From a virus (lineage: Duplodnaviria > Heunggongvirae > Uroviricota > Caudoviricetes), in the IMG/VR virus record IMGVR_UViG_2609459840_000009: DNA of 38,416 nt, one strand, 5' to 3'. Of this stretch, positions 1 to 12,020 are shown piece after piece (position 1 is the stretch's first letter; every line of letters starts with the position of its first letter). The notes beneath the pieces were generated by a model that made no database searches, was not told where the DNA came from, and saw only the letters and a program-made list of their open reading frames with translations. The position numbers were made by a program, and so were the translations under genes.

Positions 1-1053
1 TTACGGGGTAATGCCAACCGCTGCCGCCACTTTGTCGCCACTTGGCAGCGTTGCCAGAGGATTGAAACGGAGCGCCGTTTCCAGATGATCCGGTGCCAGA
101 TGTGCGTAACGCATAGTCATTTTTATATCGTGGTGTCCGAGAATTTTTTGTAAGGCCAGAATGTTTCCACCCGACATCATGAAGTGCGCTGCAAACGTAT
201 GGCGCAGAACGTGTGTGAGTTGACCGCGAGGGAGCACGATAGACGTTTTTTCCATCACGGATAAAAATTGAAAATAGCAGTCTGTGAAGAAATTGAACCC
301 ATCGAGCGCCATGATCTCTTCGTAAAGCTCTTTACTGATAGGGATGCTTCTGTTTTTCTTCCCCTTCGTTCTGACAAAGGTAATTCGGTATTTGGTCACC
401 TGTGAGCGGGTAAGATTTACGGCTTCACGCCAGCGTGCGCCTGTGCTTAAGCATATCTTAACTACCAGTGCCAGAATTGGGTCCTGACGTTTGCAATCAG
501 CCAGCAATTCAACAATCTGCTCATGGGTAAGCCATGCCATCTCTTTTTCTGCGATGGTGAATTTTCGCATGTTCTCCAGTGGGTTCGGATACGACCATTC
601 GCCCAGACGGGATAGTTCGCTAAAAACACTACTTAGATAGCTTTGCTCCAGGTTAATGGTGACCGGGCTTGCTCCTTTCTTCCATTTCTCGCTGAAGTAG
701 ATCTCGCCTGTCAGGCGTTTATCTCGATAGTGGGCAAACATTTTAGAGGTTAGATCAGTTGCAAGGGGATTGCCCAGAGCGTCAACCATCAGCAGCAATT
801 TGTCATAGACATGCTGCCCAGCAGTCAGTGATTTACCATGTAGTTTGAACCATAGCTCAACCACGTCTTTCAGTGTTCGACGATCCACTGATTCACCTAG
901 CCAGGGCTTTGCTTCGGTTTCTTCCATCGTGTGACGCTCAAAAGCCAGAGCTTCGCCTTTGGTGGCGAATTGTTTACGCACACGACGTCCACTACGTCCG
1001 GCGGGATAACATTCGCACAGCCATTTTCCTGTGGTGAGTTTTCGTACTGCCAT
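1..1053 (-). CDS. int: phage integrase, tyrosine recombinase (P2/186 Int family)
   Basis: 350 aa ORF with ATG start at 1051-1053 (minus strand) and stop at 1-3. C-terminal HxxR...Y catalytic signature (LRHTFAAHF ... MRYAHL). Position at the prophage end matches P2 organisation. Confidence 0.93.
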   Translation of the reverse strand: MAVRKLTTGKWLCECYPAGRSGRRVRKQFATKGEALAFERHTMEETEAKPWLGESVDRRTLKDVVELWFKLHGKSLTAGQHVYDKLLLMVDALGNPLATDLTSKMFAHYRDKRLTGEIYFSEKWKKGASPVTINLEQSYLSSVFSELSRLGEWSYPNPLENMRKFTIAEKEMAWLTHEQIVELLADCKRQDPILALVVKICLSTGARWREAVNLTRSQVTKYRITFVRTKGKKNRSIPISKELYEEIMALDGFNFFTDCYFQFLSVMEKTSIVLPRGQLTHVLRHTFAAHFMMSGGNILALQKILGHHDIKMTMRYAHLAPDHLETALRFNPLATLPSGDKVAAAVGITP

Positions 1054-1136: not shown

Positions 1137-2813
1137 CTAAGCAACATGTAGTTCATCGTTGGCGGAAGTGGCTGCTTTGCGTTCCTGCTCAATAGCTAGT
1201 GACTCTCTATATTCTTTCGCCTCTGCAAACATTGTCCAGTGGGCATTGATGTTCATATCTTCAATAACCGATTTAATTTCTTTAATATTTACGTTAAAAA
1301 ACTCTTTTCGTGAGTTAATTTTATTGACCTGCTTTTCGTTGAAGACTTTATGCAGATGATTTTCTAATGACGGTGCATCATCACTATAAATCATCGCATG
1401 AACATCGAACGAAAAAGGAACACTAGCATCCCCAAGTTCACGAACACGATCAAGTGGTTCAAGGCGGCGTGTCATTCCAATTTTATATACATCTTCGCCA
1501 AATGAGCCAATATTGCTAATTATATAAACATGGCCTGATCTAGTTTGTTGAGCCATAGAAATAGCTCGTTGGTTTTTAGCTTCAGCTTCTTCATATTTTA
1601 ACTGTAGTTCAGCTATTTTTTGCTCTAAAGCTAAGCGTTGTTCTTCATTTGCAAGCATAAGCTCTTTCGTCGCTTTATTTATAGCTTGCTGAATAGCTTT
1701 CTCTTCTTTTTCGGCTTCTTTTATCGCTTTTTCATACTCTCTACGAGCTCTTTCCTCTTCACGAAGCTGTTCTTTAATCCTTCTTTGCTCCTCTTTTTCT
1801 TCGAGCATAATTTCATTAACTGCAACTCCCCATTTTAGCTCGTTGAGTCGTGCCTGAAGATAGATGTCACTTATTTTTGCGGATTTAAAAGCAGAGCCAT
1901 TATAATTTACAAGTTGAAATGCATCTTTTATTTCTTGGGAAAGTTTTCCAAAATTGTTGTGTTTGACTTTTGATAAAATACTGTCAACTCTTCCATTGAA
2001 GGCATCCAAAACAAAGTTGATAGCAGTATTACGCCTGTTTTGCTCAACATAATCACACGAAGCTGCTTTATTAGTTTTTATTAATGATTTTGTTAACTCC
2101 CTGGCTTTTTGTAATTCCTTGCCTGCATCTGTAAACTCATAATTTTCTGCCAATTCATCAAGTACACTACGGTTAGGGATGATCCATTCATCGCCATAAC
2201 CTTCAATTTTATTTTTCATTGATTTAGCAACTGCTTCATATTTTTCTGCAAACTCTTTAGCTTCATATGCTGAACCAGCAATCTCTTTTGCTCTTTCTTC
2301 TGCATCGGAAATAATTTTTACTGCGTTGTCATTAGCATTTGAGATCAGCTCATTTGCTTTACTGTTGGCATTATCAAGACGTTCTTTGGCTTTCAGGCGT
2401 GCATCGCGAGCGTCTTTGGTGATTGCTATAGCTTCGCTATTAGCGTTGCTTATTGTTATCTGAGCTTGATAATTTGCTTCGTTTACTGTCTTAGCAGCCT
2501 TTATTTGGGCTTCTTCTATTTTTTGCCTGGCTATTGAGTCTGCATTTTTTATCTTATTCTCTGCTTCCATCACTGCGCTGTGCAATTCTACGTATTGCCA
2601 TAATGGTGCAGCTCGTCCTTCAAGCTCTGATAGATCTCGTACAGTCTGTGCTAATTCTTCTTGATTTTCTTTCAGTTGGCTGGAAAGAGCTATGTTGTTA
2701 GCCGTCAGGTTATCTATGGCGGTTTTGTGTTCTTTACTTTTCTTAAATAATATTATAGCTAGAACAGGGGCGAGAAATGCTAATAATAATATAACGATGG
2801 AAAATGAATTCAT
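1137..2813 (-). CDS. cargo protein: N-terminal transmembrane anchor, long coiled-coil, C-terminal T5orf172/GIY-YIG-like domain (predicted nuclease or DNA-binding)
   Basis: 558 aa ORF with ATG at 2811-2813 and an AAGGA RBS. Hydrophobic N-terminus (FSIVILLLAFLAPVLAIILF), then Ala/Lys/Glu-rich heptad-like sequence. C-terminal motif GHVYIISN...YKIGMTRR...R...E resembles the T5orf172/GIY-YIG superfamily from memory. Visibly AT-rich compared with neighbouring phage genes. Confidence 0.7.
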   Translation of the reverse strand: MNSFSIVILLLAFLAPVLAIILFKKSKEHKTAIDNLTANNIALSSQLKENQEELAQTVRDLSELEGRAAPLWQYVELHSAVMEAENKIKNADSIARQKIEEAQIKAAKTVNEANYQAQITISNANSEAIAITKDARDARLKAKERLDNANSKANELISNANDNAVKIISDAEERAKEIAGSAYEAKEFAEKYEAVAKSMKNKIEGYGDEWIIPNRSVLDELAENYEFTDAGKELQKARELTKSLIKTNKAASCDYVEQNRRNTAINFVLDAFNGRVDSILSKVKHNNFGKLSQEIKDAFQLVNYNGSAFKSAKISDIYLQARLNELKWGVAVNEIMLEEKEEQRRIKEQLREEERARREYEKAIKEAEKEEKAIQQAINKATKELMLANEEQRLALEQKIAELQLKYEEAEAKNQRAISMAQQTRSGHVYIISNIGSFGEDVYKIGMTRRLEPLDRVRELGDASVPFSFDVHAMIYSDDAPSLENHLHKVFNEKQVNKINSRKEFFNVNIKEIKSVIEDMNINAHWTMFAEAKEYRESLAIEQERKAATSANDELHVA

Positions 2814-2833: not shown

Positions 2834-3430
2834 TCAATTTGAAACTATTGTACTTCTTATACAAGCAACCACTTCAATATCAGAAAATGCACATTCAAAG
2901 CTATTCTCTGTAGTTGTAATTTTAATCATACCTTTTGGAAGCTTTGTGATTTTTCGAATGGAATAGGTTCCGTCGATGTTGATTAACCAGTGCCCATCAA
3001 GTACTTCAGAAAATTTTTGATCACAAATGTATGTGACAAGCCCATCCAGAATAACAATTGGTGATGAAAGATTTGCAGGAAGAAATGATGAATCGAAGAC
3101 ATATGAACCATCTTCAATCATTTTGCCTGCGGTAAGGCGAAACTTGGGAAGCTCTTCTGTGGCTACTGTCAGCGAGCTTTGCTTAAGTCCTTGCCCGGTG
3201 GTTAACCATTTCAGTGAGGTTCCTGTTTCAAGAGCACATTGGATTATCCAGTCTGCAGGAAACGTATCCCGCAAATACCTGTTCGCCAGAGTGCTTTTTG
3301 ATACTTCCAAGTGATCAGCTAAAGCCTGTCGTGTCGTAAAGCCATAAGCTTCGACTAATCGCTCAATCGCAGCCTTACCACCTTTATTGGGATTTATTTT
3401 GATCTCACTTGGGTACTTTGATGTTGACAT
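2834..3430 (-). CDS. cI: 186-type CI immunity repressor (HTH DNA-binding)
   Basis: 198 aa ORF with ATG at 3428-3430. N-terminal HTH-like segment (TTRQALADHLEVSKSTLANRY). Divergent from the early operon, as for the repressor of 186-like phages. Confidence 0.8.
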   Translation of the reverse strand: MSTSKYPSEIKINPNKGGKAAIERLVEAYGFTTRQALADHLEVSKSTLANRYLRDTFPADWIIQCALETGTSLKWLTTGQGLKQSSLTVATEELPKFRLTAGKMIEDGSYVFDSSFLPANLSSPIVILDGLVTYICDQKFSEVLDGHWLINIDGTYSIRKITKLPKGMIKITTTENSFECAFSDIEVVACIRSTIVSN

Positions 3431-3525: not shown

Positions 3526-3747
3526 ATGACCCCTAACATTTCAATAACTCTGAATACGCCACATGTCACAATTGAGCGTTATAGCGAACTTACTGGTCTT
3601 TCAATCGACACAATTAACGATATGCTGGCTGACGGTCGCATCCCTCGGCATCGCCTTCGGAAAGACAAGAAAAGAGAAAAGGTGATGATCAACCTTGCTG
3701 CTCTTACCGTTGATGCACTTACTGATTGCAATGTTGTATTCAACTAG
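3526..3747 (+). CDS. Cox/Apl-like small HTH regulator (excisionase / lysogenic-promoter repressor candidate)
   Basis: 73 aa from ATG 3526 within the 112 aa ORF. First gene of the early operon opposite cI; small basic protein with HTH-like segment ([23 protein letters not shown]). Confidence 0.6.
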
Positions 3748-3779: not shown

Positions 3780-4289
3780 ATGTTTGATTACCAAGTTTCC
3801 AAACATCCACATTTTGATGAAGCCTGTCGTGCATTCGCACTGCGCCACAACCTGGTGCAACTGGCAGAACGTGCAGGCATGAATGTGCAGATTCTGCGGA
3901 ACAAGCTGAACCCAGCTCAACCTCATTTATTAACCGCACCAGATATCTGGCTACTTACCGATCTGACTGAAGATTCAACGCTGGTAGACGGTTTTCTGGC
4001 ACAGATTCATTGTCTGCCATGTGTACCGATTAATGAGGTGGCAAAAGAGAAACTGCCACATTACGTCATGAGTGCAACCGCAGAGATCGGGCGTGTTGCT
4101 GCAGGTGCGGTATCTGGCGATGTAAAAACCAGTGCAGGTCGTCGTGATGCTATCAGCAGCATTAACTCTGTAACACGACTGATGGCGTTGGCTGCTGTTT
4201 CATTGCAGGCCCGTTTACAGGCTAACCCTGCGATGGCGAGTGCAGTTGATACCGTGACTGGCCTCGGTGCTTCATTCGGTTTGCTGTGA
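3780..4289 (+). CDS. cII: phage CII-like regulatory protein
   Basis: 169 aa from ATG 3780. Position directly after the Cox/Apl-like gene and the size match 186 CII; family assignment from memory, not from alignment. Confidence 0.6.
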
Positions 4290-5580: not shown

Positions 5581-6434
5581 GCACCATCCTGAAATGGGCG
5601 GGAAATAAAACCGCAATTATGTCCGAACTGAAAAAACACCTTCCTGCTGGCCCGCGACTGGTTGAACCTTTCGCGGGTTCCTGTGCTGTGATGATGGCGA
5701 CGGATTATCCAAGCTATCTGGTTGCGGATATTAATCCTGATTTAATCAACCTCTATAAAAAGGTTGCCGCTGATTGTGAATCGTTTATATCTCGCGCCAG
5801 AGTTTTATTTAAGGAAGCAAACAGGGAGGTGGCTTATTACAACATAAGGCAGGAGTTTAATTACTCAACTGAAATTACTGATTTCATGAAAGCGGTATAT
5901 TTCCTGTATCTCAATCGTCACGGTTACCGTGGTTTATGTCGCTATAACAAGAGCGGGCATTTCAACATTCCGTACGGTAATTATAAAAATCCGTATTTCC
6001 CTGAAAAAGAAATTCGCGCATTTGCAGAGAAAGCCCAGCGGGCAACGTTTATCTGCGCAAGCTTTGATGAAACGCTGGCGATGCTGCAGGTGGGGGATGT
6101 GGTGTATTGCGATCCGCCGTATGACGGTACGTTTTCCGGCTATCACACTGATGGTTTCACTGAAGATGACCAGTATCACCTGGCATCCGTTCTTGAACAT
6201 CGGTCATCAGAAGGACATCCGGTCATTGTTTCTAACAGTGACACATCCCTGATCCGTTCGCTATATCGCAATTTTACTCACCACTACATCAAGGCAAAAC
6301 GCAGCATCGGTGTGGCAGCTGGTGAGAGTAAATCTGCAACAGAAATCATCGCTGTTTCCGGGCCGCGCTGCTGGGTGGGATTTGATCCTTCGCGTGGCGT
6401 AGATAGTTCTGCCGTGTACGGAGTGCGTGCATGA
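5577..6434 (+). CDS. DNA adenine methyltransferase (Dam-like, N6-adenine)
   Basis: ATG 5577 overlapping the upstream stop. N-terminal SAM-binding motif (KWAGNK...EPFAGSCAV) and catalytic DPPY motif ([11 protein letters not shown]). Confidence 0.85.
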
Positions 6435-8845
6435 GCCATGCTGATATGAACAACTGCAGCGGCTTTAACGAGGTCGCCGCAGCATTCTCATGGAACAGCC
6501 CGAAAAAGGCTATTAACCCTTATCTGGACCCGGCGGAAGTTGCGCCGGTTTCTGCGCTTTCAAACCTGATCACTCTGTACGCTGCCGATAACGAGCAGGA
6601 ACAGCTGCGCCGTGAGGCGCTGAGTGATCAGGTCTGGGAGCGTTATTTCTTTAATGAATCCCGTGATCCTGTCCAGCGCGAAATGGAACAGGATAAGCTC
6701 ATTAGTCGGGCAAAGCTGGCGCATGAGCAGCAGCGTTTTAATCCGGATATGGTCATTCTGGCGGACGTCAACGCCCAGCCTTCCCATATCAGCAAGCCGC
6801 TGATGCAACGTATTGAATACTTCAGCAGCCTGGGCAGGCCAAAGGCTTATTCCCGCTATTTGCGTGAGACGATTAAGCCATGTCTGGAACGACTGGAGCA
6901 TGTACGCGACAGTCAGCTATCCACTTCTTTTCGCTTTATGGCAAGCCATGAAGGGCTGGACGGTCTGCTGATCCTGCCTGAAATGAGTCAGGATCAGGTG
7001 AAACGCCTGTCCACCCTGGTAGCTGCGCATATGAGCATGTGCCTTGATGCCGCTTGTGGCGATTTGTATGCCACCGATGACGTTAAGCCAGAAGAAATCC
7101 GCAAGACATGGGAAAAGGTGGCGGCGGAAACCCTGCGACTGGATGTCATACCGCCTGCGTTTGAGCAACTCCGCCGGAAAAGAAACCGCCGTAAACCCGT
7201 GCCCTATGAACTCATTCCGGGGTCGCTGGCGCGTATGCTGTGCGCCGACTGGTGGTATCGGAAATTGTGGAAGATGCGTTGCGAATGGCGGGAAGAGCAG
7301 TTGCGTGCTGTTTGCCTGGTCAGCAAAAAAGCATCTCCCTATGTCAGCTATGAAGCCGTGATGCATAAACGTGAGCAGCGCCGTAAGTCGCTGGAGTTTT
7401 TCCGTTCTCATGAACTGGTGAACGAAGACGGCGACACGCTGGACATGGAGGATGTGGTAAACGCCAGCAGCAGCAACCCTGCGCATCGCCGCAATGAGAT
7501 GATGGCCTGTGTTAAAGGTCTGGAGCTTATCGCGGAAATGCGCGGTGACTGCGCCGTTTTCTACACCATCACCTGTCCGTCACGTTTCCATTCCACGCTA
7601 AATAACGGCAGGCCCAACCCGACCTGGACAAATGCGACGGTAAGACAAAGCAGTGATTATCTGGTCGGCATGTTTGCTGCATTTCGTAAGGCGATGCACA
7701 AAGCCGGGTTGCGCTGGTATGGCGTGCGGGTGGCTGAGCCGCATCATGACGGCACAGTTCACTGGCACCTGTTGTGTTTCATGCGCAAAAAAGACCGCCG
7801 CGCCATTACTGCATTGTTGCGTAAGTTTGCTATCCGTGAAGACCGCGAGGAGCTGGGTAATAACACGGGGCCACGCTTTAAGTCTGAGCTGATAAACCCG
7901 CGCAAAGGAACGCCGACTAGCTACATCGCGAAATACATCAGTAAGAACATTGACGGGCGTGGTCTGGCTGGCGAGATCAGCAAGGAAACGGGTAAATCTC
8001 TGCGTGATAACGCTGAATACGTTAATGCCTGGGCGTCTCTGCATCGTGTTCAGCAATTCCGCTTCTTTGGCATTCCGGGGCGTCAGGCTTACCGTGAACT
8101 GCGATTGCTGGCTGGTCAGGCGGCAAGGCAACAGGGTGACAAAAAAGCAGGTGCGCCGGTACTGGATAACCCGCGCCTTGATGCCATTCTGGCTGCAGCT
8201 GATGCTGGTTGTTTTGCCACCTACATCATGAAGCAGGGCGGCGTACTGGTTCCCCGTAAATATCACCTCATCAGAACCGCTTATGAAATCAACGAAGAGC
8301 CGACCGCCTATGGCGATCACGGCATTCGTATTTATGGCATCTGGTCACCCATTACAGAGGGCAAAATCTGCACTCATGCCGTGAAGTGGAAAATGGTTCG
8401 TAAGGCCGTTGACGTTCAGGAGGCGGCAGCCGACCAGGGCGCTTGCGCCCCTTGGACTCGTGGCAATAACTGTCCCCTTGCTGAAAATTTGAACCAGCAG
8501 GAGAAAGATAAATCAGCTGATGGGGACACCAGAACGGACATTACCTGCATGGATGACAAGGAGTTGCACGATTATCTGCACAGTATGAGCAAAAAAGATC
8601 GCCGGGAACTGGCAGCAAGGTTACGCCTGGTGAAACCGAAACGGCGTAAAGACTACAAACAGCGAATTACAGACCATCAGCGACAGCAGCTTGTCTATGA
8701 ACTGAAGTCCAGAGGATTTGATGGCAGCGAGAAAGAGGTCGAGTTGCTCCTTCGCGGTGGCAGTGTTCCGTCAGGAGCAGGCCTGCGTATCTTCTATCGG
8801 AACCAGCGTCTGCAGGAGGATGATAAATGGCGGAACATGTATTAA
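6431..8845 (+). CDS. A: replication initiation endonuclease (P2 gpA family, rolling-circle)
   Basis: 804 aa ORF with ATG 6431 overlapping the Dam stop. Contains an HxH-type motif (HWHLLCF) and a tyrosine motif ([12 protein letters not shown]) typical of rolling-circle initiators. Confidence 0.9.
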
Positions 8846-8937
8846 TTACGCTGATTAACAATTCGTGCTCTTAATAATACCAGGCATATCAGGCTGATGA
8901 ACGTAAAAAAACGTTTTACATCAGTAAGATTATTATA

Positions 8938-8957
8938 TACTGTAAATATAAACAGTG
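8938..8957. promoter_or_regulatory. LexA (SOS) box overlapping a promoter-like region
   Basis: TACTGTAAATATAAACAGTG matches the CTGT-N8-ACAG LexA consensus (CTGT 8940-8943, ACAG 8952-8955). Lies about 40 bp upstream of the next ORF; TTTACA and TATTAT-like hexamers are adjacent. Confidence 0.6.
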
Positions 8958-8998
8958 GTTATGCATACAGTATTGCTTGTGGTGTCATAGGAGGAAAA

Positions 8999-9187
8999 AT
9001 GCAGGACTATTTTTTGGAGTCTTTGAAGCTCCAGCGCATTGATTTTTTTCTTAAGCTTGTAGCGGCTAGTGAGTGTAGTGATGAAGAGAAGGGGCTGGCT
9101 TTGCAGTGGGTTTCTGAACTAACAGATGAACTCATGGCAAAAATCAGAACCCACGAATACAACCGCTCAATGGATGTCATCAGTTGA
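8999..9187 (+). CDS. small hypothetical protein downstream of the LexA box (antirepressor candidate, Tum-like by position only)
   Basis: 62 aa from ATG 8999 with GGAGGA RBS at about 8989-8994. Confidence 0.4.
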   Translation: MQDYFLESLKLQRIDFFLKLVAASECSDEEKGLALQWVSELTDELMAKIRTHEYNRSMDVIS

Positions 9188-9197
9188 GGTGACTTTT

Positions 9198-9431
9198 ATG
9201 CGCATTGAAATAATGATCGATAAAGAGCAGAAGATTAGCCAGTCTATCCTGGACGCCCTTGAATCCGAGCTTTACCGCAATCTGCGCCCCCTGTATCCAA
9301 AAACGGTAATTCGTATCCGCAAAGGTAGCTCTAACGGTGTGGAACTGACCGGACTGCAACTGGACGAAGAAAGAAAACAAGTGATGAAAATTATGCAGAA
9401 GGTGTGGGAAGACGACAGCTGGCTGCATTAG
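9198..9431 (+). CDS. DinI-like protein
   Basis: 77 aa from ATG 9198 with GAGGTG RBS. MRIEIMIDK...LRPLYP...VIRIRKGSSNGVELTGLQLDEERKQVMKIMQKVWEDDSW resembles DinI (short, acidic C-terminal WxxDDxW). In 186 the LexA-controlled tum product carries a DinI-like part. Confidence 0.75.
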   Translation: MRIEIMIDKEQKISQSILDALESELYRNLRPLYPKTVIRIRKGSSNGVELTGLQLDEERKQVMKIMQKVWEDDSWLH

Positions 9432-9559
9432 AGAACGTTGCGGATGATAAAACTAGCTTTTACCATCTGCAAGGCTGAACAACGATTGTAGCGAGGTGTT
9501 AGGTGGTTCAAAAGTAAAGCGGTTATTTTGTCCGTAAAAGTGAACCACCTGTATCTTGA

Positions 9560-10300
9560 TCAGTTTTCTTTGAATTTTTCACTTAATCGTTTCGTCAATA
9601 CTTCGACAGATTCTTTGCGACCGGAGAACAAGTCATTGACGACGTACTCCATAATCTCAAAAGCATCCTCAATGTCTTTGACTTTTACTTCATCGTAGGT
9701 ATGGCTTCCGGCATTTCCTAAAAATTTAATTGCCATAAGAGGTCTTGAAAACGATCCGTATAATTCAGGTAGCATCCCTAAACGGTGGTGTAGAGTTATG
9801 CGTTTGCCATTATCATTACGTTCAGCTACATCCATAGCAGTTAGCATTCTTTCAACTGAAATTCGAATTAGGTTTGCTGCTGCGCCAGGCTGTATTAGGA
9901 AAATGGAAAATGAGGCTTCAAGCGGTTCGGTAATTTCTTTTGGGCATTTTTCAGGTATTTCGAAAGGATGCAGTGATGGGTAAAAGGTGAAAGGTCTATA
10001 CCATTGATAGTACTCAATATCATTTCTTTCTTCATCCCAACCTTGTTCCCATCCACTCTTACCAGTACAGGCCACAACTTCACCACATTGCATTCTTGAA
10101 CAGCGGGCCATGCAACTGAAAATAGATGAATCCATTTCTAGTTCAAACCAATCTTCACTGCGGAATTTTCGGGTATCATGTGTGTCATACGAGACGAAAC
10201 TTTCTTTAATGATCTGTAGGGTTTTCTGATTGCAGTTAGGGCAGGGCCACTCAACCTGCATATCGTGGAAAAACGCACCAGAGAGCTTGTGCACAGTCAT
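9560..10300 (-). CDS. cargo protein: N-terminal Cys-rich (zinc-ribbon-like) region, C-terminal DUF4145-like (possibly HEPN-like) region
   Basis: 246 aa ORF with ATG 10298-10300 and GAGGAA RBS. Cys cluster (CPNC ... CMARCSRMQCGEVVAC) and C-terminal motif IKFLGNAGSH reminiscent of DUF4145, from memory. AT-rich, in the P2 tin/old hotspot position. Confidence 0.6.
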   Translation of the reverse strand: MTVHKLSGAFFHDMQVEWPCPNCNQKTLQIIKESFVSYDTHDTRKFRSEDWFELEMDSSIFSCMARCSRMQCGEVVACTGKSGWEQGWDEERNDIEYYQWYRPFTFYPSLHPFEIPEKCPKEITEPLEASFSIFLIQPGAAANLIRISVERMLTAMDVAERNDNGKRITLHHRLGMLPELYGSFSRPLMAIKFLGNAGSHTYDEVKVKDIEDAFEIMEYVVNDLFSGRKESVEVLTKRLSEKFKEN

Positions 10301-10707: not shown

Positions 10708-11682
10708 ATGGGGTTAGGATTAAAAGACGCTATTGTGCATACCGCTGCGTTTCATCAAAAGGAAACTAATGAATTGCAATTGCCAAACAATCATTGGCAT
10801 CCTGGTTTTATCACTGTCTTAGCAGCTTACGTGAATCATCACAAAATTACCGAAGATAACTGTGTTTTGTCATGCCCGGGCTATATGCGAGCTATCAATT
10901 TACATGGTGCTTTATGGGGAGAGGATCAGTATCAACAGGAACGTGTAAATGTTGGAAGAAATTACAGTTTGGTTACAGCATTAACCAATGTTGAAGCTGT
11001 TGACGTTGCCACTGGTAGTATTAACAGTTGTGTAAGGCAGTTAACATTCCCTGATCGTGATCCGAGAGATTGTCCCAAGGGACTTACAGATCTAACCCAT
11101 GTTATAGGTGAGCTTCACGATAACGTTTGGTCGCATGGAAAATCAACGGGTTTTTCTTTTGCACAACGTTCGGCTGTACCCCACACTCAAAAAAAAGAGC
11201 ACTATTTAGAATTTTCTTTGGCGGACTGTGGGTTAGGATTTCTCCGAGAATTGCGGCGAGCTGGTATACCCGGAATTGAGACTCACCAGGATGCGATCGC
11301 ATGGTGTATTCAAGAGGGACATTCATCTAAGCATGCTGATTTGCAGGATGATTGGGCACAGCAGCTTCCCCAGGACTTTATTGGGGGTAGTGTGTTTGGC
11401 CACGGGGTTTCGGTCAAAGAAAAAGATAATAATCATCAAGGGCTTGGGTTGTATCACTTGATGAAATTGATAAAAACATATAATGGGGAATTGCAACTGG
11501 CTTCAGGAAATGTATGCTTAGAAGCAATAGGTGATGAAGTGAGCTATACTGAATTACGTACTGAATGGCCGGGTGTAGCAATTTCTTGCCGTTTTAAGAT
11601 TCATGAACTGGCAGTCGATAAAGATAGCGAAGAAAATGACCCTCAGCTTATGGAAATAATGCGGGCGTTAGGAGGAGAGTAA
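10708..11682 (+). CDS. cargo protein: GHKL/Bergerat-fold ATPase (histidine-kinase-like ATPase, RsbW/anti-sigma-kinase-like) with an unassigned N-terminal region
   Basis: 324 aa ORF with ATG 10708. N-box-like ELHDNVWSHG, G1-box-like DCGLGF and G2-box-like GLGLYHL are visible in the translation. AT-rich. Confidence 0.75.
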   Translation: MGLGLKDAIVHTAAFHQKETNELQLPNNHWHPGFITVLAAYVNHHKITEDNCVLSCPGYMRAINLHGALWGEDQYQQERVNVGRNYSLVTALTNVEAVDVATGSINSCVRQLTFPDRDPRDCPKGLTDLTHVIGELHDNVWSHGKSTGFSFAQRSAVPHTQKKEHYLEFSLADCGLGFLRELRRAGIPGIETHQDAIAWCIQEGHSSKHADLQDDWAQQLPQDFIGGSVFGHGVSVKEKDNNHQGLGLYHLMKLIKTYNGELQLASGNVCLEAIGDEVSYTELRTEWPGVAISCRFKIHELAVDKDSEENDPQLMEIMRALGGE

Positions 11683-12020
11683 TGAACAAAATCGCATACA
11701 AGTTACCCGAGGGTGACCTGGCTTCGCGCAATCAGGCTATCCCCCAACGACACAAGATTGAAGGGTTCATTAAAGAAGGGTATACCGTAGATTTAGATCT
11801 GAGCGGTGTTTATTCAATTTCAGAATCATACTCTGATGAAATCTTTGGTGTTTTGGTAGTGAAATTCGGTGTAACCAAAGTTTTGAGTCAAGTTAAGGTT
11901 CGCAATGCACCCCCTTCAATTTTAAAAAGTATTGCAAAAGTGATCCAACGCCGTAGTAATGAAGTAGCATCAAAAAAGGTTCATTCCGTTGGATTTGATG
12001 GTTTATACGCCGTTTGTTAA
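11682..12020 (+). CDS. cargo protein: small STAS-like (DUF4325-like) protein, putative partner of the GHKL ATPase
   Basis: 112 aa from ATG 11682 overlapping the upstream stop (TAATG), with strong GGAGGAGA RBS. Motif VDLDLSGVYSISESYSDEIFGVL resembles DUF4325/STAS-like proteins, from memory. Confidence 0.65.
   Translation: MNKIAYKLPEGDLASRNQAIPQRHKIEGFIKEGYTVDLDLSGVYSISESYSDEIFGVLVVKFGVTKVLSQVKVRNAPPSILKSIAKVIQRRSNEVASKKVHSVGFDGLYAVC

Follow-up and report, generated by a model that had tools for sequence, protein, structure and literature searches.

The antirepressor Tum of phage 186 binds the phage repressor CI reversibly and blocks its binding to DNA, according to the accounts of Shearwin 1998 given in PMC3121763 and PMC7708051. 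In Fels-2, a prophage of Salmonella LT2, and in PSP3 the tum gene is split in two, and the upstream gene of PSP3 is the antirepressor (PMC3121763). The PSP3 sequence record describes this gene, tumA, as "similar to 5' end 186 tum; UV induction of prophage", and its neighbour tumB as DinI-like. The Fels-2 genes STM2726-2728 are among the operons that respond to the mutagen MX (PMC2225428); PMC8072944, which deals with the Salmonella SOS regulon, holds nothing on this locus. Genetic data come from the prophage of E. coli HS. Neither delta-tum nor lexA(Ind-) cells show lysis or viral foci upon treatment with mitomycin C (PMC11195241), the delta-tum allele being one in which the start and stop codons of tum were fused (PMC11195241, Phollow preprint).

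Here we analyze a module of this kind in a 38.4-kb stretch of DNA, hereafter the window (38,416 nt in full). We consider it very likely that the operon is the SOS switch of a Fels-2/186-like prophage of the P2 family, that it is repressed by LexA, and that the product of its first gene, TumA, induces the prophage by way of CI.

The prophage and its lysis-lysogeny switch

The window is a P2-family prophage of the Fels-2/186-like kind with a 186-type lysis-lysogeny switch (Table 1). An E. coli chromosome matches its first 12.1 kb at full length with 97.3% identity. As in 186, the switch consists of a 186-type CI, Apl and CII. By its domains and by identity, the repressor of the prophage is a 186-type CI, and neither P2 C nor a lambda-like cleavable CI. 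It is 33% identical to 186 CI. A gene of 558 aa between int and cI (1137-2813, minus strand) gives a PADLOC match to PD-Lambda-1, an anti-phage defence protein (E = 9e-120). It carries the domains DUF4041 and T5orf172/MUG113 and is called a "DUF4041" or "SNIPE associated" protein in E. coli records. It looks like cargo inserted into the region of the lysogenic operon.

Table 1. Features of the window discussed in the text, in order of position
Feature	Position	Strand	Remarks
Integrase	1-1053	-	
cI, 186-type immunity repressor, presumed target of TumA	2834-3430	-	Pfam Phage_CI_repr and Phage_CI_C
Apl-like ORF	end at 3747		
CII, 186-type	3780-4289		family Phage_CP76
DNA adenine methylase ORF	end at 6434		named so in the annotation of the E. 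coli HS prophage
Replication gene A	6431-8845		Pfam Phage_GPA, E = 6.5e-128
-35-like hexamer TTTACA	8915-8920	+	5/6 positions as TTGACA; 17-bp spacer to the -10
-10 hexamer TACTGT	8938-8943	+	3/6 positions as TATAAT
LexA operator TACTGTAAATATAAACAGTG	8938-8957	+	17/20 positions as consensus; first six bases, TACTGT, are the -10
tumA, 62-aa antirepressor	8999-9187	+	homologue of Fels-2 STM2728, E. coli HS "tum" and the N-terminal part of 186 Tum
tumB, 77-aa DinI-family protein	9198-9431	+	homologue of PSP3 TumB and of 186 Tum residues 71-145 / Tum95.5
Stable hairpin just after the tumB stop	9436-9474	+	no U tract; putative role as a possible operon end
Second stable hairpin	9484-9565		no U tract; 10-bp stem AGGTGGTTCA/TGAACCACCT, long loop

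LexA operator and promoter

The sequence TACTGTAAATATAAACAGTG is the sole match in the window to the LexA consensus TACTGTATATATATACAGTA at three mismatches or fewer, and none of 100 shuffled sequences contained such a match. The bare core CTGT-N8-ACAG is not significant when taken alone, since 0.43 matches are expected by chance and 36 of the 100 shuffles held at least one. The box starts 92 bp downstream of the end of gene A. Gene A of 186 is likewise followed directly by a promoter whose -10 is covered by a LexA site; this promoter, p95, is annotated as TTCACA-18 bp-TACTGT with the LexA site beginning at the -10, and the promoter of the window has an equal layout except for its 17-bp spacer. 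A generic promoter scan called no promoter at TTTACA/TACTGT, because TACTGT agrees with TATAAT at so few positions (Table 1).

The arrangement recurs in other phages. The LexA box is present without a single base change in Fels-2 and E. coli HS, and in Fels-2, 186, PSP3, ESSI-2 and ev015 a hexamer comparable to TTTACA precedes the LexA box by 16-18 bp. All nine divergent phages examined carry a perfect CTGT-N8-ACAG box (17-19 of 20 positions as consensus) upstream of a tumA homologue, at a distance of 18-41 nt from its start, and the flanking DNA cannot be aligned between phages. From this match, LexA would be expected to bind the copy at 8938-8957. The initial annotation of this DNA, which was made by a model from the letters and their open reading frames, had placed a near-consensus LexA operator over promoter-like hexamers immediately after gene A, followed by the 62-aa ORF and a DinI-like gene in different frames. 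The operator, the order of the elements and the difference in frame are borne out, the starts of the two genes being 199 nt apart.

The leader between the box and tumA (8958-8998) is 41 nt long in the window, Fels-2 and E. coli HS, whereas it measures 18 nt in 186 and 18-28 nt across the seven phages other than these three. The extra stretch of the longer leader holds CATACAGTA, which is similar to a LexA half-site and may be the remnant of a second LexA box.

The 62-aa ORF, tumA

The first gene of the operon, tumA, has a Shine-Dalgarno sequence, GGAGG, 5 nt upstream of its start. Its product is identical to the E. coli HS protein at 61 of 62 positions (98%) and 98% identical to Fels-2 STM2728. 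At the DNA level, both the Fels-2 locus (STM2728/STM2726.1) and the E. coli HS "tum" locus are 98% identical to the window from the promoter to the tumB stop, and both are likewise placed after gene A. This closeness allowed the delta-tum allele of E. coli HS to be read on the window. One junction primer maps to 8979-9001 and, with one mismatch, ends on the ATG at 8999; the other matches 9185-9207 exactly and begins on the TGA at 9185. These are the ends of the 62-aa ORF, and therefore the gene deleted in E. coli HS is the tumA homologue, with the DinI-like gene left intact.

The relationship of TumA to 186 Tum is remote. BLASTP gave no alignment between the 62-aa ORF and 186 Tum, and a tblastn search of the window with PSP3 TumA returned nothing meaningful. 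When family profiles were compared with hhalign, however, the TumA family matched the family of the 186 Tum N-terminal part with a probability of 95.7% in one run (E = 9e-9) and 95.2% in a second, residues 1-44 of TumA being aligned on residues 1-44 of Tum. Controls scored far below this, with at most 14% for 100 column-permuted profiles and 0.1% for the reversed one. Remote relatives of TumA were collected from small proteins behind gene A of other Peduoviridae, namely ENT90, ESSI-2, ev015, PSP3 and two Yersinia enterocolitica phages. They form a continuum with a common motif, ER[IV]..[IF]..[LM].A...C...[DE][RK]..AL.W[IV].E[LI], and proteins of Yersinia phages at one locus are matched by both TumA and 186 Tum queries. 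Profiles and intermediate sequences together argue for a remote homology between the 62-aa ORF and Tum residues 1-44. Given its near-identity to loci that have been studied, this remote homology and the literature, the 62-aa ORF is an antirepressor.

AlphaFold2 models TumA as a two-helix hairpin (helices 2-23 and 28-61, pLDDT 90.5). A Foldseek search of the PDB with this model gave non-specific helical matches only, none with E at or below 0.001. TumA belongs to PHROG 698, of unknown function, and the 62-aa ORF matched no Pfam family and no PADLOC entry. Among the matches listed in a large protein search, all 120 TumA homologues exceed 80% identity and none is a fused TumA-DinI form. RefSeq records of E. 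coli and of phages label the family "hypothetical protein" or sometimes "levan regulatory protein".

The DinI-like gene, tumB

The second gene, tumB, is preceded by a Shine-Dalgarno sequence of its own, GAGGTG (9186-9191), and is separated from tumA by a 10-nt spacer. Its product matches the Pfam family DinI (PF06183) with E = 1.3e-22 and 80.4 bits, against a gathering cut-off of 24.2. It also matches the solved structure of E. coli DinI, 1GHH, over residues 1-75 (E = 3.6e-6), including the acidic C-terminal segment W-E-D-D-S-W, and with 186 Tum it shares 41% identity over Tum residues 71-145. The second ORF is thus DinI-like, as had been proposed. Membership of this family suggests that TumB may bind RecA filaments and modulate their coprotease activity, and an additional modulation of RecA by TumB is plausible. 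Deletion of the dinI homologues of the Gifsy prophages had no significant effect on induction (PMC3121763).

A rival reading takes the module for a DinI "moron" that is induced by SOS and modulates the RecA of the host, with the small ORF as an irrelevant leader and the prophage induced by another route. LexA-controlled DinI homologues are common in prophages (PMC3121763), and the small ORF lacks a Pfam family and is called "hypothetical" nearly everywhere. However, this ORF has its homologue in the antirepressor part of Tum, and its 98%-identical orthologue in E. coli HS is needed for induction, as judged from a mutant in which the DinI gene is intact (PMC11195241). Moreover, the LexA box is accompanied by a tumA homologue in every phage compared, and a DinI gene in only some of them. 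We find a DinI "moron" very improbable and continue to regard tumA as the inducer gene.

A terminator-like hairpin at 9176-9193, GTCATCAGTTGAGGTGAC with TTTTAT behind it, extends over the stop codon of tumA and the Shine-Dalgarno sequence of tumB. It was considered as an attenuator or an element of translational coupling and rejected, its fold being no better than that of shuffled sequences (z = -1.04). The hairpin is probably due to chance, or serves at most for weak translational coupling.

A natural gene pair or a broken tum

In 186 both parts reside in one protein of 146 aa, whereas the window has two genes. Since the Tum parts of the window also lie in different frames, 199 nt apart, the two ORFs might be the remains of a single 186-like tum that was broken by a frameshift and is decaying as a pseudogene. 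The relatives speak against this. The two-ORF arrangement, with a Shine-Dalgarno sequence and an ATG for each gene, is conserved at 98% identity in Fels-2 and E. coli HS, and codon differences from these two run at 3-5 synonymous to 1 non-synonymous in each gene. We found neither a disruption relative to intact close relatives, all of which are of the two-ORF form, nor relaxed selection. Of 5426 complete E. coli genomes, 1125 (~21%) carry the two-gene module, and homologues of the 62-aa protein come, among the matches listed, from Salmonella, Klebsiella, Enterobacter, Citrobacter, Pectobacterium and other genera. In ENT90, ESSI-2, ev015 and the Yersinia phages, tumA homologues stand without any DinI gene. 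Finally, the split form works in E. coli HS (PMC11195241). A decaying pseudogene is therefore exceedingly improbable; tumA and tumB are a natural split form and not a frameshifted tum.

Only in 186 and the phages nearest to it, such as BIS20 and the Yersinia pestis phages with an annotated "SOS operon TUM protein", is the fused Tum found. Even in 186 the DinI-like part can be made alone, as Tum95.5, from internal starts annotated in the record. Because stand-alone tumA homologues exist and the internal starts of 186 give Tum95.5, the antirepressor and DinI-like parts are separable modules. The initial annotation had left it between a module split into two ORFs and a frameshifted tum. The first of these stands and the second falls, given the two-ORF form at 98% DNA identity in relatives and the mostly synonymous changes. 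Its wider proposal, a 186-style antirepressor pathway under LexA control, agrees with the similarity of TumB to Tum residues 71-145, with the profile homology of TumA to Tum residues 1-44 (a match at 95-96% against controls at or below 14%, though BLASTP was negative), and with the presence of a 186-type CI and CII.

Proposed mechanism of induction

We propose that in a lysogen host LexA would sit on the operator at 8938-8957, occlude the -10 of the p95-like promoter and keep the operon off. Upon DNA damage RecA would become active, LexA would cleave itself, and tumA-tumB would be transcribed. Derepression by damage through LexA cleavage is predicted here from the genetics of the 98%-identical E. 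coli HS module (PMC11195241). TumA, the helical hairpin, would then bind the 186-type CI and block its binding to the operator. With CI inactivated, the lytic promoter would be free and the prophage would be induced. The co-transcribed TumB would not itself be the inducer; its probable role is to bind RecA filaments and adjust how strong the SOS signal is or how long it lasts.

The step that concerns the partner of TumA deserves separate consideration. TumA is predicted to contact the CI of the window prophage itself, a repressor that is 55% identical overall to E. coli HS CI and 41-42% to Fels-2 CI. It is conceivable that the operon is intact and SOS-inducible, but that recombination has left TumA non-cognate to the CI of the window and the prophage non-inducible or weakly inducible. 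Phages whose TumA is at least 98% identical have CIs just 39-55% identical overall to window CI; the stop codon of tumB is the exact point at which homology to Fels-2 and E. coli HS is lost, a sign of recombination in the region; and the Salmonella prophage BTP5 has a tum homologue, yet could not be induced (PMC7067206). When the CI domains are taken separately, however, phages with this TumA show 71-83% identity in the N-terminal, DNA-binding domain, against 42-55% for phages of other Tum types, and the C-terminal domain has diverged to the same degree in the two groups. Such a pattern is in line with a conserved target of TumA in the N-terminal domain. We therefore judge a non-cognate TumA to be quite unlikely, and a TumA that acts on the prophage's own CI remains the preferred reading.

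TumA type and CI domains

The domain comparison covered 16 phages, the N- and C-terminal domains of each CI being compared separately with those of window CI. In phages with TumA 98-100% identical to that of the window, the identities stated above for the N-terminal domain, which is the HTH domain, go with 27-41% for the C-terminal domain. The corresponding C-terminal value for the other Tum types is 20-37%. The group that shares the TumA of the window has the N-terminal signature SKST-A-R--RD-FPA-W-IQC-LETG. Hence the Tum type tracks the type of the CI N-terminal domain, and not that of the C-terminal, oligomerisation domain.

It is possible that one near-invariant TumA serves a whole set of P2-family prophages, that it recognises the N-terminal domain of CI, and that it can induce co-resident prophages in trans, like the Gifsy antirepressors. 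We offer this only tentatively, as the correlation of types suggests it but we think it somewhat unlikely to hold. The alternative is simple linkage, in which the stretch from the N-terminal domain of cI through tumA is inherited as one recombination block with a breakpoint in the cI linker.

Another CI has an unusual form. The CI of Klebsiella phage ST11-OXA48phi15.3 (MK433580.1 32448-33326) is 292 aa long by its annotated coordinates, and the longest ORF that we extracted is 311 aa. Its single C-terminal domain is preceded by two N-terminal HTH domains in tandem. This is either a repressor with a duplicated N-terminal domain or a fusion that arose from where the record was cut.

The region downstream of tumB

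Two hairpins follow the operon (Table 1). The combined fold of 9425-9565 has z = -3.57, and none of 200 shuffled sequences folds as well. The DNA stays homologous to Fels-2, E. coli HS and Klebsiella phages like KP12 exactly up to the tumB stop (9429); with another set of phages, vB_EcoM-813R9, 500465-1 and Cartapus, the homology continues to about 9502. The interval 9429-9502 marks a recombination boundary where the cargo hotspot starts.

Beyond this boundary lies a gene for a 246-aa DUF4145 protein (9560-10300, minus strand; Pfam E = 5e-13, PHROG 1305), with a weak match to PD-T7-4 (2.9e-5). It is convergent with the SOS operon, and no terminator with a U tract lies between the two. Because of this arrangement, read-through during the SOS response could yield antisense RNA to the DUF4145 gene. 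Further on, before the portal-side genes, is a two-gene cassette (10708-12020, plus strand). Its first gene encodes 324 aa without a Pfam or PADLOC family. The product of the second, 112 aa long, has a DUF4325 domain, which is STAS-like, and weakly matches a segment of DrmA. The cassette is a candidate for defence cargo in a variable region.

Significance

The prophage in the window is very probably SOS-inducible by means of an antirepressor and not by repressor cleavage. This type of induction matters for predicting the release of phage after treatment with DNA-damaging antibiotics. There is also a gap in annotation. About 21% of complete E. coli genomes carry the module in which TumA is the inducer, yet TumA has neither a Pfam family nor a PHROG function.

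Comparison with known systems

The closest counterparts are the loci of Fels-2 and E. coli HS, from which the window differs mainly in its repressor and in what follows the operon. Downstream of tumB, Fels-2 has STM2726, and 186 has orf97 downstream; the window has the convergent DUF4145 gene instead, and no homologue of either orf97 or STM2726 was found in it. PSP3 resembles the window in having a split pair, antirepressor and DinI-like, behind a LexA box after gene A. Its TumB is closely similar to that of the window, whereas its TumA is without BLAST-level similarity to window TumA. In PSP3, moreover, tumA and tumB (2635 and 2821) share a frame with a stop codon between them, while the genes of the window are in different frames and are set apart by a spacer.

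A more distant parallel is found in the dinI-gfoA/gftA operons of the Gifsy prophages and in AntC of N15. As in the window, these are LexA-repressed and direct a small antirepressor against a non-cleavable repressor (PMC3121763). The Gifsy antirepressor operon is also linked to a dinI homologue, but there dinI comes first, the reverse of the order in the window (PMC3121763). Both the antirepressors and the repressors of Gifsy and N15 belong to families unrelated to those of the window.

Taken together, the module is the already described and very common tumA-tumB operon of Fels-2, PSP3 and E. coli HS, and its mechanism is not new. What our analysis adds is the annotation gap and the lead from the CI domains, and it leaves the current view of how these prophages are induced unchanged.
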